A stretch of 64,000 nucleotides of DNA from a bacterium. Its GTDB lineage: Bacteria > UBA8248. Position 1 is the stretch's first letter. The number at the start of each line of letters is the position of its first letter. Where the stretch lies: the NCBI GenBank assembly GCA_965202625.1, contig CBDBBI010000010.1:2441142-2505141 (forward strand), given 5' to 3'. The position numbers and the translations under genes are program-made. Of this stretch, positions 43,265 through 48,372 are shown piece after piece. The notes below the pieces were generated by a model. The model was given only the letters and a program-made list of their open reading frames with translations, was not told the origin of the DNA and ran no database searches.

Positions 43265-44005
43265 ATGCCTTGTTTCTACAGGACGAGCGAGATGGAGAAG
43301 AACCTTGCGGGGGCGGCATACAGCCCGACCGAGGGGGCGTGGGTACGGGGGGAGCGGATCATTTTCGGCAAGATGCGGATGCCCGCCGGCACGCGCTCGA
43401 GCGCGCACTCCCATCCGAACGAGCAGTTCGGCTACTGCCTCGCCGGAAGCGTCCGCCTGAACGTGGAGGGCGAGAGCGGGGTTCTCAAGCCCGGCCACAT
43501 CGCCTACCGGCCCGCTGGTGCCGTGCACGAGGCCGAGGTGCTGGACGATGCGGATTATGAGTTCATCGTGGCGAAGGACACGGCCGCGGGCATTGAGGGA
43601 ACGCCCGCCGAGATGGGGCGCACCGCCGGGTGCGGGGAAAGCGGGGGTGCGGGGCGCATCCCCTATTTCTATGACACCGAGGCGATGGACAAGGGGCTGG
43701 CGGGCGAGACCTACAGTCCGACCGAGGGGGCGTGGGTGACGGGTGCGCGCGTCATCTTTGGGAAGATGCGCATTCCGGCGGGAGGACGCGCCGAGGCCCA
43801 CTCCCACCCCAACGAGCAGTTCGTGATCGTCCTGAGCGGTGCCGCGCGCATGAAGATAGGCGAGGAGACGGGGACGCTCGCTCCGGGCGACATCGCCCAC
43901 ATTCCGGCGAACGCGGTGCATTCCTGCGAAATTCTCGGCGATGCGGACTATGTCTTCGTCACGGCGAAGGACACCTCATGGGGCATCGGGGGCGTGAAGG
44001 CTTGA
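43265..44005 (+). CDS. bicupin protein (two tandem cupin domains)
   Basis: Two internal repeats each with cupin His motifs (AHSHPNEQF...; ...G.AVH), ~110 aa each, separated by Gly-rich linker. Confidence 0.75.
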   Translation: MPCFYRTSEMEKNLAGAAYSPTEGAWVRGERIIFGKMRMPAGTRSSAHSHPNEQFGYCLAGSVRLNVEGESGVLKPGHIAYRPAGAVHEAEVLDDADYEFIVAKDTAAGIEGTPAEMGRTAGCGESGGAGRIPYFYDTEAMDKGLAGETYSPTEGAWVTGARVIFGKMRIPAGGRAEAHSHPNEQFVIVLSGAARMKIGEETGTLAPGDIAHIPANAVHSCEILGDADYVFVTAKDTSWGIGGVKA

Positions 44006-44054
44006 GGGGGGGGTGCACTCCGCCTTCAGACTTTAGTTGGCGGATTCATTTTCC

Positions 44055-44531
44055 CTATGATCTCAGTCTATCGGTCAATTTGGAGCCGCATTTGAGCCAT
44101 CGTAAGGCTTCACTTCGCCCGCGGAAACGTATTTTTCCGCTTCCATTTTTCCTCTGTGCCCTGATTTCCGATGTTCTCACGCCCTTATGGGCGACGACGG
44201 GACGAAAATGGACCACTGTATTTTCGGGAACAACCCCCTCGGCGGCGCGCGCCCCTGCTTGAAGTTGTGCAATGGCTTGGCTGACGTCCAACCGACCTTT
44301 CTTCAGTTCCAGCGGCACGACCCATAAAGAGCAGTTGCCGCTTTCGGCGATGAACAGGTAGTCGGGACGTTTCTGATTCTTGCCGAGGGGCGAACCCGGT
44401 TTGTCAAAATCGATGATCAAGCGTGGCGACGGCGCACCTTCAAGAGATACGCGGCAACCATCCCTGCGGCAATTATCTGAAAGACATTGCGGAGAAACCT
44501 CTGCCCGAACTGCATCCACGAGGCCCTTCAC
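44055..44531 (-). CDS. small protein with PD-(D/E)xK nuclease-like signature (RLIIDFD ... VVPLELKKG); predicted effector partner of upstream ATPase
   Basis: 158 aa; GTG start overlapping the ATPase stop (GTGA), i.e. translationally coupled; D43...E75-x-K77 spacing consistent with restriction-endonuclease-like fold. Family assignment is inference. Confidence 0.4.
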   Translation of the reverse strand: MKGLVDAVRAEVSPQCLSDNCRRDGCRVSLEGAPSPRLIIDFDKPGSPLGKNQKRPDYLFIAESGNCSLWVVPLELKKGRLDVSQAIAQLQAGARAAEGVVPENTVVHFRPVVAHKGVRTSEIRAQRKNGSGKIRFRGRSEALRWLKCGSKLTDRLRS

Positions 44532-46057
44532 CCGCTTTTTTCTCCAATCCGGCTGGAAATATCCGCCCAGTCATTGTGGAGCGCGGCGGCGACGTCATCA
44601 AAACCAGACGGGAAAAGCCCCGAATCATTGAGAGGGATTTCCTTCACGATAGAACCCCTTGGGCGGTTCTTTGGCTGAAATAGCCATACCCCCACCTCAT
44701 CAGGTCGTAGATCGACGTCGCCATCTTTAGGCAGGTTCGATGACTGCACGATGTTGGCGAGTTCTTCCAGCACCCACTCGCTGTGCGTCGTGAGGAGCAC
44801 CCGAACGCGCGCGCGGACGAGCGCCGCGATTTGCCGTGTGAATTCGACCTGCATGGCGGGATGCAGGTGCGATTCCGGCTCCTCAATGATCAGCACGTTG
44901 CCGGGTCTCACCACATAGCGCAGATACAGCACCACCGGCGCGAGTTCCGACACCATGGACGAGGCGTTCATCAACGGAAGGTCGGCCTTCCACGTCTCCG
45001 GCCGATAGGTGAAGCGCGGGTAGCCGGTTTCCGTTTTCTTGACGTTCACTTCTCCGCCTAGGATGAATTTTTCGATTCCCTTGTCGAGAGGATTTTGAGT
45101 TTCGCGCCCAGACTGCCCACTGTCGATCTCAATCAGTTGTTCGAGGAAGTCCGCCTGAACGCCCGAGAGCAGGGGGGTGGGGGTATCCTGATGCAGACCC
45201 GCCCTGGTGGCGCGCTCGATCAAGGCGCTTACGACCACCTGATGGGCGTGCATGACGCCTGTGCGGCTGGCGGGAAGATAGAAGGCCGGAAGATGTAGGG
45301 GGGCAAAGACCTGAGTTGCAGTGAAGTCGCTTAAATTCGATATCAGCCGCAGTGCCTTCAATTCTGGATACTCATTCTTCCATATATGCATCTTCATGCG
45401 GTAGGAACTGCCGAAGCTCCTTAATGAAAATGACCGATCATCATTCTTGAGCCGTATAGGCGTATTTTCGGGAATCTTCGTCTTGAGCGCGGGCTTTTGC
45501 GCGTGGATTCTCAGCTCTTGAACGAAAGGATCGGCATCGTCCGAGACGCCCCTTCGCAGAACGACCTGCGCGTTCCGTGCACTTCCCCCTTTACGAATCA
45601 ATTCTTTCGTCTCGTTAACGCCGAAGCACCTGCTGACTTCATTGCCGAGATTTCCGCCCAGGGCGTCAAGTCTGGTGAGTGCTGAAAGAACCCAACCTGC
45701 GATGGGATCGGGGATAAGAATGCTTTTCGCATTTGACAACGCCTCCTCGTCCCCAAACGTCCGCTTCGCCCAATCGAGAAACCCATCCAAAGTTTCCTTG
45801 GTGGGTTGATTCTCCTCGTCGTCCACAAATAGGTCGTAACCTAAGGGAAAGTGTCGGAAGCCAGGCAGACCCAGGCCATCAAGGTGACGACTGAAAAACC
45901 GGTGCAAGGCATATATCAGAATCGCCAGATAGGATTTGCCGGTGTTGCTCGGGCCCACGAACACGGTCAAAGGACGCAGAGCAATTTTCGCATCGGCAAT
46001 GGGTCCGAAATTTTTCACTTCGAGCTTGACGGAGCCTTGCACAGGCGAATCGCTCAA
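44528..46057 (-). CDS. ABC/SMC-type AAA ATPase (AAA_15/AAA_21-like N-terminal Walker A, Walker B ...LIIEEPESHLHP, H-loop TTHS, DUF3696-like C-terminal tail)
   Basis: KLEVKNFGPIADAKIALRPLTVFVGPSNTGKSYL (Walker A), long inserted middle region, VLIIEEPESHLHPAMQ (Walker B/D-loop), LLTTHS (H-loop); architecture typical of ATPase components of two-gene phage-defence systems. Confidence 0.75.
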   Translation of the reverse strand: MSDSPVQGSVKLEVKNFGPIADAKIALRPLTVFVGPSNTGKSYLAILIYALHRFFSRHLDGLGLPGFRHFPLGYDLFVDDEENQPTKETLDGFLDWAKRTFGDEEALSNAKSILIPDPIAGWVLSALTRLDALGGNLGNEVSRCFGVNETKELIRKGGSARNAQVVLRRGVSDDADPFVQELRIHAQKPALKTKIPENTPIRLKNDDRSFSLRSFGSSYRMKMHIWKNEYPELKALRLISNLSDFTATQVFAPLHLPAFYLPASRTGVMHAHQVVVSALIERATRAGLHQDTPTPLLSGVQADFLEQLIEIDSGQSGRETQNPLDKGIEKFILGGEVNVKKTETGYPRFTYRPETWKADLPLMNASSMVSELAPVVLYLRYVVRPGNVLIIEEPESHLHPAMQVEFTRQIAALVRARVRVLLTTHSEWVLEELANIVQSSNLPKDGDVDLRPDEVGVWLFQPKNRPRGSIVKEIPLNDSGLFPSGFDDVAAALHNDWADISSRIGEKSG

Positions 46058-47005: not shown

Positions 47006-47129
47006 GACGGTTTTCCTTTTTATTCTCATGCTCCTCCACAATAAATTATTGCGAACACTAAAAAAATGAAGAAAAACTCCACCAAATAAAAAATGAAAAG
47101 AGTTTGAGAAAAAATAGCGGATGACCCGA

Positions 47130-47513
47130 CTACATTTCAGGTTTGTTTCCATGTTTCATCACGTCCATCTTGAAATCTGTATCGGATTGCACCCTGATCT
47201 CGTCATATACTTGCCGGAAAAGTCTTTCCTGCCAGAGAAAATATCCGTCCAGCCACCAGAACCCTATAACGGGTGGAATAAGGAGAAGAACAATAAACGG
47301 ATTTTGTATCTCGCTCCTTGCAGTCAAGACTATGGCGGCGACAATGACAGTCATGCTCCAATTTTTCACGAGAAAGGAGTTGTTGCCCAAACGGTTGATA
47401 ATGGCTTGGGTCATTTCCAGGTGTTTGATGACCTTCTCTGTGCCGTTCATATTCTCGCTCGCCGGCCAGCAATTTTCTGATTGAGGTTGGCGTTGCTCGT
47501 CTTTGTCTTTCAA
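47130..47513 (-). CDS. small 2-TM membrane protein (SLATT-like architecture), putative effector partner of the TIR protein
   Basis: 127 aa (TTG start; alternative ATG at 47450): amphipathic helix, TM1 WSMTVIVAAIVLTA, short loop, TM2 PFIVLLLIPPVIGFWWLDGYFLW, C-terminal helix; overlaps/abuts ThsB-like gene, same strand, same AT-rich block. Confidence 0.4.
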   Translation of the reverse strand: MKDKDEQRQPQSENCWPASENMNGTEKVIKHLEMTQAIINRLGNNSFLVKNWSMTVIVAAIVLTARSEIQNPFIVLLLIPPVIGFWWLDGYFLWQERLFRQVYDEIRVQSDTDFKMDVMKHGNKPEM

Positions 47514-47676
47514 GATTTGAGCGCAATCCCAAAAGCGAAACTACACCACGAAATCACATGGCTACTACAAAAGATATAGTGTTTGTCAAGTGCGCGCATA
47601 TACCGCATGTTTGATTTTGTTCTTTGTCCGCAGGGTGCAGCGCATAAAGGGATAGGCCCTCACGGGGCGAGGCGCT

Positions 47677-48372
47677 CTATCCGCCAGCCGCCGTCCGTCT
47701 CCAGGGCGTAGCGCACGCGGTCGTGGAGGCGGCTGTCCCTGTGCCGCCAGAACTCCACAGAACGGGGGTGAGGAGGTAGCCGCCCCAGCCCGGCGGCCTC
47801 GGTACCGCGCGGCCCGCGTATTTCTCCTCCGCCTCGCGCGCGCCTCGCTCAAGAAACGCCCTGTCGCGTATCGCGCGGCTCTGGGGGGAGGCCCACGCGC
47901 CTGTCTGGCTGCCGCGCGGGCGGGAGGCGAAATACGCGTCCGAGACTTCGGCGGGCAGTTTTTCGGTCACGCCCTCGGCGCGCACCTGCCGGCCCGCCTC
48001 TTTCCAGTGAAAGACGAGGGCGGCTCTGGGGTCGCCCTCCAGGTGTGCGGCCTTGTCGCTCTCGTAGTTGGTGAAAAAGAGAAAGCCCGGCGCATCGACC
48101 CCCAGAGTTTCCGGATCCTTATACAGGACGATCCGGGCGGCGGGAGCACCGTCCGGCTGGACGGTGGCGAGCGTCATCGCGTCTTCGCGGTGAATTCCCG
48201 CGCTTTGGGCCTGGGCGTACCAGCGGCGAAACTGTGTGATCGGGTCGCGCGCGACGCGTGCCGCATCCAGATCTTCTGCCGCCATCTTCCGAAGCAGATC
48301 GTCGTTCATGGCGCTCCTCTGCGGTGTTTGCGCATTCTCGGGCGCGTCGGCCCGCGTGGGGTTCTCGCCCAT
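47677..48372 (-). CDS. pdxH: pyridoxamine 5'-phosphate oxidase PdxH, with -1 frameshift ~35 codons before the native stop (native stop at 47650-47652)
   Basis: FMN-binding split-barrel motifs (ARIVLYKD..., [10 protein letters not shown], ...[11 protein letters not shown]); after [10 protein letters not shown] the frame departs from the conserved ...[12 protein letters not shown]...RLAP end, which is intact in the duplicate at 46161-46305 (GGGGCACGAGG there vs GGGGGTGAGG here). Confidence 0.75.

Follow-up and report, generated by a model that had tools for sequence, protein, structure and literature searches.

A probable two-slot stack of anti-phage cassettes with a chimeric gene-end scar in a recombinase-free hotspot of Nitrospinota

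The 64,000-nt stretch of Nitrospinota DNA analysed here (contig CBDBBI010000010.1; referred to as the window) carries two different cargos between two convergent core genes, a bicupin gene (cupin) and pdxH. The two cargos are separated by a scar, in which a 3'-terminal fragment of pdxH is fused to a 3'-terminal fragment of cupin. Our results suggest that the locus is probably a heritable two-slot stack of anti-phage cassettes in a recombinase-free hotspot, built by an illegitimate join and by reshuffling through homologous recombination.

Results

Two cargos are separated by a fusion of both flanking gene ends

The layout was read at 43.0–48.6 kb of the window by a repeat search and by alignment of the repeated copies. 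From left to right, the locus consists of the intact cupin gene, an ATPase-containing cargo (cargo A), an orphan 3' fragment of pdxH (pdxH'), an orphan 3' fragment of cupin (cupin'), a TIR-containing cargo (cargo B) and the long copy of pdxH (Table 1). A first-pass annotation, made from the DNA letters alone, had described these repeats, fragments and cargos, and all of them are present at the positions it gave. It had read them as two tandem units, each running from a cupin 3' end across a cargo to an oppositely oriented pdxH 3' end and joined by illegitimate recombination, and the junction is confirmed at base level. The duplications that it had put at ~97% and ~95% identity are real, with corrected values of 98.3% and 95.2%.

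The two cupin copies are identical at 171 of 174 positions (98.3%), covering the last 168 nt of the gene and 6 nt downstream. They differ at 43951 (T/C), 43981 (G/A, the TGG to TGA change in the fragment that had already been noticed) and 44001 (C/T). The two pdxH copies (46161–46305 and 47657–47800) are identical at 138 of 145 positions (95.2%), including one 1-nt indel. Repeats of such length and identity cannot be due to chance, and no further copy of either gene end is found elsewhere in the window. In the pdxH' fragment, Pfam finds the PNP_phzG_C domain in frame and over its full length (42/42, E=1.3e-19). The fragment carries non-conservative changes (PLGWCGY against the conserved PPHWGGY) and so is decaying; both orphan fragments are probably non-functional and decaying.

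The fragments meet at an 11-bp microhomology, which reads GGTGCCGCGCG in the parent cupin (43838–43848) and GGTACCGCGCG in the parent pdxH (47801–47811), with 10 of 11 positions matching. The scar has the form of a unit (cupin 3' end, cargo, pdxH 3' end) whose end is joined to its own start. The microhomology fits illegitimate recombination yet is not itself improbable: cupin and pdxH share 29 pairs of 11-mers with at most one mismatch (~15 distinct sites), and shuffled sequences give 13 on average and 32 at most. We therefore did not use it as statistical evidence; the first-pass annotation was right about its presence in both parents, and its rarity is not borne out.

Table 1 Features of the cupin–pdxH locus in the window
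Feature	Position	Strand	Description
Bicupin (cupin)	43265–44005	+	Left flanking core gene; 246 aa; two Cupin_2 domains, Pfam E=9.5e-31
Cupin 3'-end repeat, copy 1	43838–44011	+	End of intact gene, stop codon, G-run
Cargo A gene 2	44055–44531	-	Putative PD-(D/E)XK nuclease; 158 aa
Cargo A gene 1	44528–46057	-	AAA_15/AAA_21 ATPase; 509 aa; Pfam AAA_15 E=5.7e-22
pdxH' fragment	46161–46305	-	Orphan 3' fragment; last 47 codons and stop, in frame, without 5' part
Junction microhomology	46306–46316	.	pdxH' meets cupin'; GGTGCCGCGCG; same junction in L160 at 11843–11853
cupin' fragment	46306–46479	+	Orphan 3' fragment; TGG to TGA at 46447–46449
Cargo B gene 2	46526–47008	-	ThsB-like TIR protein; 160 aa from ATG at 47008; mechanical open reading frame reaches 47152
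Displaced third transmembrane segment of cargo B membrane protein	47044–47124	-	Different frame
Cargo B gene 1	47130–47513	-	Small membrane protein; PADLOC PDC-M50A E=1.9e-31; frameshift after about codon 125
pdxH 3'-end repeat, copy 2	47657–47811	-	Attached to full-length gene
pdxH	47660–48372	-	Right flanking core gene; Pfam PNPOx_N E=1.1e-26; in-frame PNP_phzG_C absent
G5 run in full-length pdxH	47764–47768	-	1-nt loss; pdxH' fragment and L160 are 1 nt longer, G6 in L160

The same junction occurs in a divergent haplotype

In our protein collection, a cupin 97% identical to that of the window (P0001) belongs to a cluster that also includes P0026, P0027 and P0028. P0026 is identical to the window cupin and lies on a 2,917,376-bp contig. 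P0028, which differs from the window cupin by one residue, and P0027, a 51-aa open reading frame (ORF) of a cupin fragment, share a single contig (ENA ERZ25068762, ctg112355_3x_l), referred to as L160. Its order is cupin, an AbiJ-like gene, 49 nt of pdxH', GGTGCCGCGCG, cupin' with TGG kept, cargo A and a pdxH 3' end. L160 diverges from the window by 1–8% and holds a different cargo stack around the same junction. Since L160 differs from the window everywhere, it represents a separate haplotype, whose junction was assembled independently. The junction is, by these alignments, older than the window genome and shared between lineages.

Between the two haplotypes, the genes of cargo A are 95% and 93% identical. 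Across window positions 27784–44011, aligned to L160 positions 1–10747, the identity rises from ~86% (27.8–34.7 kb) to ~99% over cupin and its upstream neighbour up219, which suggests a recent recombination tract over the left flank of the hotspot.

The scar adjoins cargo A in both genomes, on the right of A in the window and on its left in L160. In both genomes the pdxH copy beside the scar is of a 'CAC' type and the full-length copy of a 'GGT' type. This clustered 3-nt allelic difference would be hard to reach by point mutation after duplication within a genome. Outgroups gave no polarity for the two variants, as they show a third state (Lys).

The L160 contig ends at 14349–14360, six bases into the pdxH microhomology site (GGTTCC), and both of its pdxH copies read CCC where both window copies read CC. 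The contig end and the CCC reading could reflect a branch of the assembly graph, as from a further stacked unit, or a low-coverage error. In addition, an 18,328-bp contig gives matches to cupin (97%), the cargo A ATPase (88%) and the cargo B TIR protein (78%), and probably represents a third genome with the same combination of A and B.

An independent second case combines DNA of two lineages

The same topology with other breakpoints occurs in locus L006 (SB0662_bin_51). Its order is cupin, a gene for an unknown 334-aa protein, a 3' fragment of higA (higA'), a 3' fragment of cupin (cupin'), an AbiJ-like gene, higA and pdxH. The right-hand gene of the junction is higA, and the join has ~1–3 nt of microhomology. 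Both fragments are 91–94% identical to the genes of other species and only 84–86% identical to the copies of L006 itself, which are likewise closer to relatives elsewhere. The L006 stack thus combines DNA of two lineages. The first-pass annotation had supposed that an alternative allele was captured from a related strain; this is seen directly in L006, and in the window only indirectly, through the clustered 3-nt pdxH block common to the window and L160.

The cupin–pdxH gap is a defence hotspot across Nitrospinota relatives

To place the locus among relatives, we scanned genomes with the cupin protein, which gave 20 species-level relatives, and metagenomes, which gave three more contigs, for a total of 23. 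The loci compared were L001–L020, L081, L082/L096 and L160. The relatives with a named taxonomy are Nitrospinota metagenome-assembled genomes, several of them from sponge metagenomes and several of them complete chromosomes. The scan of metagenome contigs yielded no strain-level relatives (best amino-acid identity 75%).

Cupin on the plus strand and pdxH on the minus strand are convergent neighbours in 23/23 relatives, and a flavin reductase gene lies beyond pdxH wherever the contig extends so far. The stop-to-stop gap between them is 61 nt in L001, 189 nt in L004 and up to 2.9 kb elsewhere; two or three gaps are almost empty. The gap usually has a GC content of 0.45–0.56, compared with 0.64–0.72 in the flanks. 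In the window, the values are 0.51–0.60 for cargo A and 0.39–0.47 for cargo B against 0.64–0.73 for the flanks, in line with the AT shift that had been noted.

The gap content varies between relatives. It includes a type VI retron (RT_VI and HTH_VI; L003, L009), Shedu (SduA; L005), PDC-S34 (L007, L016), an AriAB/OLD-like ATPase (L011), AbiJ_NTD4 with DUF7014 (L006, L082/L096, L160), homologues of cargo A (L010, L014, L017–L020) and, adjoining pdxH in about ten loci, a HigB/HigA pair. Single-slot alleles exist as well: cargo A is alone in L018 and accompanied by a HigA-like gene in L010 and L014, and an AbiJ-like gene is the main cargo in L082/L096. A cluster of cupin-like ORFs in the gaps of L019 and L020 proved spurious: these ORFs are the HigA-like gene read out of frame or on the opposite strand.

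In every genome, the variable DNA sets in no more than ~10 nt from each of the two stop codons, and the cargo boundaries vary between genomes. A run of four to eight G (44006–44013 in the window) follows the cupin stop codon in nearly all relatives, with the variable DNA beginning right behind it. The window, L160, L001 and L002 also have a G-run behind the pdxH stop codon, on the strand of pdxH, which places the inverted pair TGAGGGGGG...CCCCCCTCA around cargo A.

No integrase or transposase domain was found by Pfam or PADLOC in the cargos or the neighbouring genes of the window locus, and the neighbours are housekeeping genes. No tRNA and no match to an Rfam family lie in or near it. The site, a space of a few dozen bases between the two stops, is thus a compact, recombinase-free defence hotspot flanked by core genes across the clade. 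The 'integration hotspot' of the first-pass annotation holds as a hotspot, with varied and mostly defence-related low-GC cargo in 23 relatives; the 'integration' involves no integrase or att-type site. The comparison with related genomes that it had proposed bears out its expectation of different cargos between cupin and pdxH.

A model for the assembly of the stack

We then propose a model for how the stack was probably built. In a first step, a single illegitimate (microhomology) join of the cupin and pdxH 3' ends would have produced a unit of cupin 3' end, cargo and pdxH 3' end with its ends fused. This could have occurred by circularisation of an excised or imported fragment or, equally possibly, by a join during import with the other fragment end anchored by homology, that is, by homology-facilitated illegitimate recombination (HFIR). 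In a second step, RecA-type homologous recombination through the 150–175 bp gene-end homologies would have set this unit beside a different resident allele. The window order (A, scar, B) would result if the unit recombined once, within the cupin end, with a resident allele of the form cupin–B–pdxH; the L160 order (AbiJ, scar, A) would result from one such exchange within the pdxH end, with a resident allele of the form cupin–AbiJ–pdxH. In a third step, the leftover direct repeats would allow loss or circular re-excision of either unit, so that no integrase would be needed to gain or lose cassettes or to transfer them from one related lineage to another.

The window and L160 show two circular permutations of a single circle (cupin', A, pdxH', scar), and the circle fits the CAC/GGT pattern of pdxH in both genomes. 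Homologous gene ends of 150–175 bp are present on both sides, with too few variants to place the crossover point. We infer the order of events, the RecA dependence and the circular intermediates from these sequence comparisons.

Several observations weigh against this model. The data are explained almost equally well by an ancestral A–scar–A duplication with later replacement slot by slot. In the window, cupin' is closest to the window's own cupin, so that a foreign origin cannot be demonstrated there. Both copies in a genome carry genome-specific variants (TTCTC/TTCTG and, before the stop codon, GCT/GCA in cupin; CC/CCC in pdxH), which implies gene conversion between the copies or independent or recurrent formation of the junction. 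L160 needs an extra truncation step, since its pdxH' remnant is only 49 nt long, and the 11-bp microhomology is not statistically exceptional. L160 and the window may come from one sample. The window stack is read from an assembly whose 2.9 Mb source contig suggests long reads, and the matches at 18,328 bp are treated as one contig because of their identical size.

The duplication just mentioned is the alternative that survives best, although we consider it unlikely. An unequal sister-chromatid exchange at GGTRCCGCGCG would first have produced cupin, A, scar, A and pdxH; allelic exchange through the flanks would later have put B into slot 2 in the window and AbiJ into slot 1 in L160. The topology matches a tandem-duplication join point exactly, cargo A lies beside the scar on opposite sides in the two genomes, and the two cupin copies of a genome share 98.3% identity as well as genome-specific variants. 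Tandem duplications by unequal crossing-over are also well documented, and transformation can trigger them (PMC3784515). However, two independent and rapid replacements would be required before RecA collapsed a perfect 2.5-kb duplication. The pdxH copies differ by 4.8%, including the clustered CAC/GGT block, and this pattern, present in two genomes, looks allelic from the start. The L006 fragments, moreover, are clearly foreign.

Site-specific integrative elements are a very improbable source of the stack. The cargos would then be small islands that an integrase acting in trans targets to the 3' end of cupin or pdxH, duplicating the gene end that contains the att site. Direct repeats of a gene 3' end around inserted DNA are the classic signature of an integrase, and the start of variable DNA close to both stops in all genomes and the almost universal G-run behind the cupin stop would suit such a scheme. 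Yet no integrase, transposase, tRNA or tmRNA lies in or near the locus, and the repeats are 150–175 bp of two genes, placed head-to-tail at an internal coding position, with no common att core. In L006 both the breakpoints and the right-hand gene (higA) are different, and the cargo boundaries differ between genomes.

It is hardly credible that an assembler merged two haplotypes (cupin–A–pdxH and cupin–B–pdxH) into a false tandem, a chimera that the first-pass annotation had considered; the source is metagenome-derived, the differences of a few percent between the copies would suit co-existing strains, and two frameshifts cluster in the second unit, which might mean a poor local consensus, but the parents of the junction share only 11 bp, too short for graph-based mis-joining, the identical junction in the separate, 1–8% divergent haplotype L160 with its other cargo order excludes a chimeric assembly, a full cupin and the 51-aa cupin' ORF lie together on that contig, a third contig appears to hold cupin, ATPase and TIR genes together, and L006 has the same architecture with other breakpoints.

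Cargo A encodes an ATPase and a small putative nuclease

The two genes of cargo A form an operon on the minus strand, with the ATPase gene first. The ATPase also matches the PADLOC models PD-T4-4_A (E=3.6e-35) and PDC-M47A (E=1.5e-28). For the 158-aa protein, an invariant D57...E75-L-K77 across eight homologues is consistent with a PD-(D/E)XK nuclease; its database matches are weak (HSDR_N in Pfam, E=0.0095; PDC-M47B in PADLOC, E=0.0099), and the PADLOC model of PD-T4-4 B is not matched. The small protein is always paired with the ATPase in homologous loci. Homologues of both genes occupy the same site in the same orientation in L010, L014 and L017–L020 (55–61% amino-acid identity for the ATPase, 53–59% for the small protein), and a further one is present in L160. 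Since homologues occur in six species, cargo A is probably a long-term resident of the site in this clade.

PD-T4-4 has a nuclease-NTPase architecture (bioRxiv 10.1101/2025.07.10.664194), and cargo A resembles it in combining a P-loop ATPase with a small protein of PD-(D/E)XK type. It departs from PD-T4-4 and PDC-M47 in this small subunit, which misses the former model and matches the latter marginally.

Cargo B encodes a ThsB-like TIR protein and a frameshifted membrane protein

The TIR protein of cargo B matches ThsB_TIR in Pfam (E=1.6e-26) and both ThsB (E=3.2e-65) and PDC-M50B (E=5.9e-60) in PADLOC, and it has 2334 homologues across phyla. Homologues of the membrane protein (73% and 50% identical) are encoded directly upstream of a TIR gene in unrelated defence islands. 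In three such loci (L161–L163) the PDC-M50 pair is adjacent, the membrane proteins are intact with three transmembrane helices, and the neighbours of the pair are type I restriction-modification genes and GmrSD. In L161, which is from an unrelated genome, the PDC-M50-like module (3133–4504) is enclosed by a type I restriction-modification operon, and its membrane-protein gene is followed by two ThsB_TIR genes in tandem.

In the window, a tblastn search with the L161 homologue splits over two frames, and SSAIFSQTLFIFYLVEFFFIFLVFAII is 59% identical to the C-terminal helix of that homologue. Because the third helix of the homologues is encoded in another frame here, the gene is frameshifted; what had been read as a protein with two transmembrane segments is a frameshifted member of a family with three. 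The displaced helix lies in a frame that continues into the 5'-extended part of the long TIR ORF. Both PDC-M50 components, the membrane protein (A) and the TIR protein (B), are thus present and adjacent, and not both are intact.

Cargo B is like PDC-M50 and Thoeris in having a ThsB-type TIR protein with a PDC-M50A membrane protein, and unlike intact PDC-M50 in its frameshifted membrane gene. No ThsA-like gene (SIR2/SLOG or Macro-TM) was found with it, and the partner of the TIR protein has ~130–150 aa and no Pfam domain above threshold. In the absence of a ThsA-type effector, cargo B is not a canonical Thoeris system. NCBIfam added nothing for the small nuclease, the TIR protein, the membrane protein, up219 or cargo 1 of L006.

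Flanking genes and chromosomal setting

The pdxH gene, which the first-pass annotation had taken to be full, is frameshifted. One base is missing from its G-run, which places the C-terminal dimerisation domain out of frame: the last ~36 codons are intact in the +1 frame, and Pfam finds PNP_phzG_C only in the orphan fragment. The G5 run is either a recent mutation that inactivates the gene or a homopolymer error of the consensus. A promoter and terminator scan across the stack gave counts not above those of shuffled sequence.

Upstream of cupin, up219 (42313–42972, minus strand) encodes a 219-aa protein with an R-x4-H (RNQVFH) HEPN-like motif and without a match in Pfam, PADLOC or NCBIfam. Relatives have one to three tandem paralogous copies of it at this position (L009, L015, L020), and this side of cupin may be a second variable, defence-like spot.

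Further left (~34100–42450) lies an array of genes for large ankyrin-repeat proteins, such as those at 36571–38355 and 39753–42443 (896 aa). The array is expanded and internally repetitive, with ~8 kb in the window against ~2.5 kb in L160. Expanded ankyrin-repeat regions are typical of sponge symbionts. On the other side of the hotspot, a 791-aa low-GC ORF (60583–62958, plus strand) stands directly 3' of metH (56230–60018). Its GC content at third codon positions is 0.46, compared with ~0.8 for its neighbours; it has no match in Pfam or NCBIfam and is probably a further horizontally acquired insertion.

Discussion

The cupin–pdxH site shares its main properties with the core defence hotspots (cDHS) cDHS1 and cDHS2 of Pseudomonas aeruginosa, which are defined by conserved flanks (Johnson et al. 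2023, PMC10250203). The same core genes flank it in many genomes, its content is variable, low in GC and rich in defence genes, and no integrase or single mobilising element is associated with it. Unlike those hotspots, it is tiny (0–3 kb, with one or two cassettes), lies between convergent stop codons and has no adjacent tRNA or tmRNA. For cDHS, exchange by homologous recombination of the conserved flanks has been proposed; such exchange would leave no scars, and is usually taken to be untraceable for that reason. The way in which these hotspots are constructed was named as unresolved (PMC10250203).

Naturally transformable bacteria are known to integrate foreign DNA by HFIR, with joins of 3–10 bp (PMC6382021). 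It was defined experimentally in Acinetobacter, Pseudomonas stutzeri and S. pneumoniae (de Vries & Wackernagel 2002; Prudhomme 2002; Meier & Wackernagel 2003, summarised in PMC6382021). The process that we propose is similar in that homology would anchor one end, a short GC-rich microhomology would serve to join the other, and foreign DNA would come to lie beside the resident DNA without a dedicated recombinase; the joint of GGTGCCGCGCG and GGTACCGCGCG, with its 10 of 11 matches, falls within the range of short (3–12 nt) GC-rich joints. It differs in that it is read from the sequence of an uncultured Nitrospinota lineage, and in that the 'foreign' DNA would be an alternative allele of the same locus, giving a tandem stack of alleles with gene-end repeats.

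Two further processes leave comparable products. In the tandem duplications of merodiploids (Johnston et al. 2013, PMC3784515), the end of a unit is likewise joined to its start and the direct repeats make the state reversible; there, the segments span 100–900 kb and the repeats are insertion sequence copies, whereas the stack described here has unrelated cargos, repeats of 150–175 bp and a segment of ~2.5 kb. Tandem accretion of integrase-borne islands also leaves successive islands separated by duplicated 3' ends of the target gene. The locus in the window differs from it by the lack of an integrase and of an att core, and by a spacer that is a chimera of both flanking gene ends. To our knowledge, site-specific integration does not produce such a chimera.

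Core defence hotspots, HFIR, tandem-duplication join points and integrase-driven tandem accretion have all been described before. The novelty lies in the combination of a recombinase-free hotspot that keeps a chimeric flank-end scar, the occurrence of this scar in two lineages with permuted cargo, and an independent second instance. In the literature library that we searched, no earlier account of defence islands with pieces of flanking genes or with scars at microhomologies turned up, which is not proof of absence.

It is tempting to go one step further, although we hold this idea only tentatively and think it rather unlikely to be right. The conserved 3' ends of cupin and pdxH might serve as recombinase-free 'attachment sites', and a scar-fused cassette might be a RecA-dependent mobile cassette that is excised as a circle through the direct repeats of 150–175 bp and enters any related genome again by a single crossover in one or the other gene end, so that the window and L160 would be two openings of one circle of A. 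If this were true, cassette arrays would be built, permuted and pruned much as in an integron, but without an integrase.

The locus adds a compact defence hotspot for Nitrospinota. The relatives are mostly sponge-associated, and we know of almost no experimental genetics for this group. The locus indicates how ordinary recombination may enlarge a defence island with no integrase involved. The preserved scar turns a vague model of flank exchange into a specific and checkable one, in which an illegitimate join is combined with homologous recombination through gene ends. It also suggests a genome-wide screen for orphan fragments of flanking core genes inside hotspots. If the process is general, such fragments would be a countable footprint of the integrase-free assembly of defence islands.

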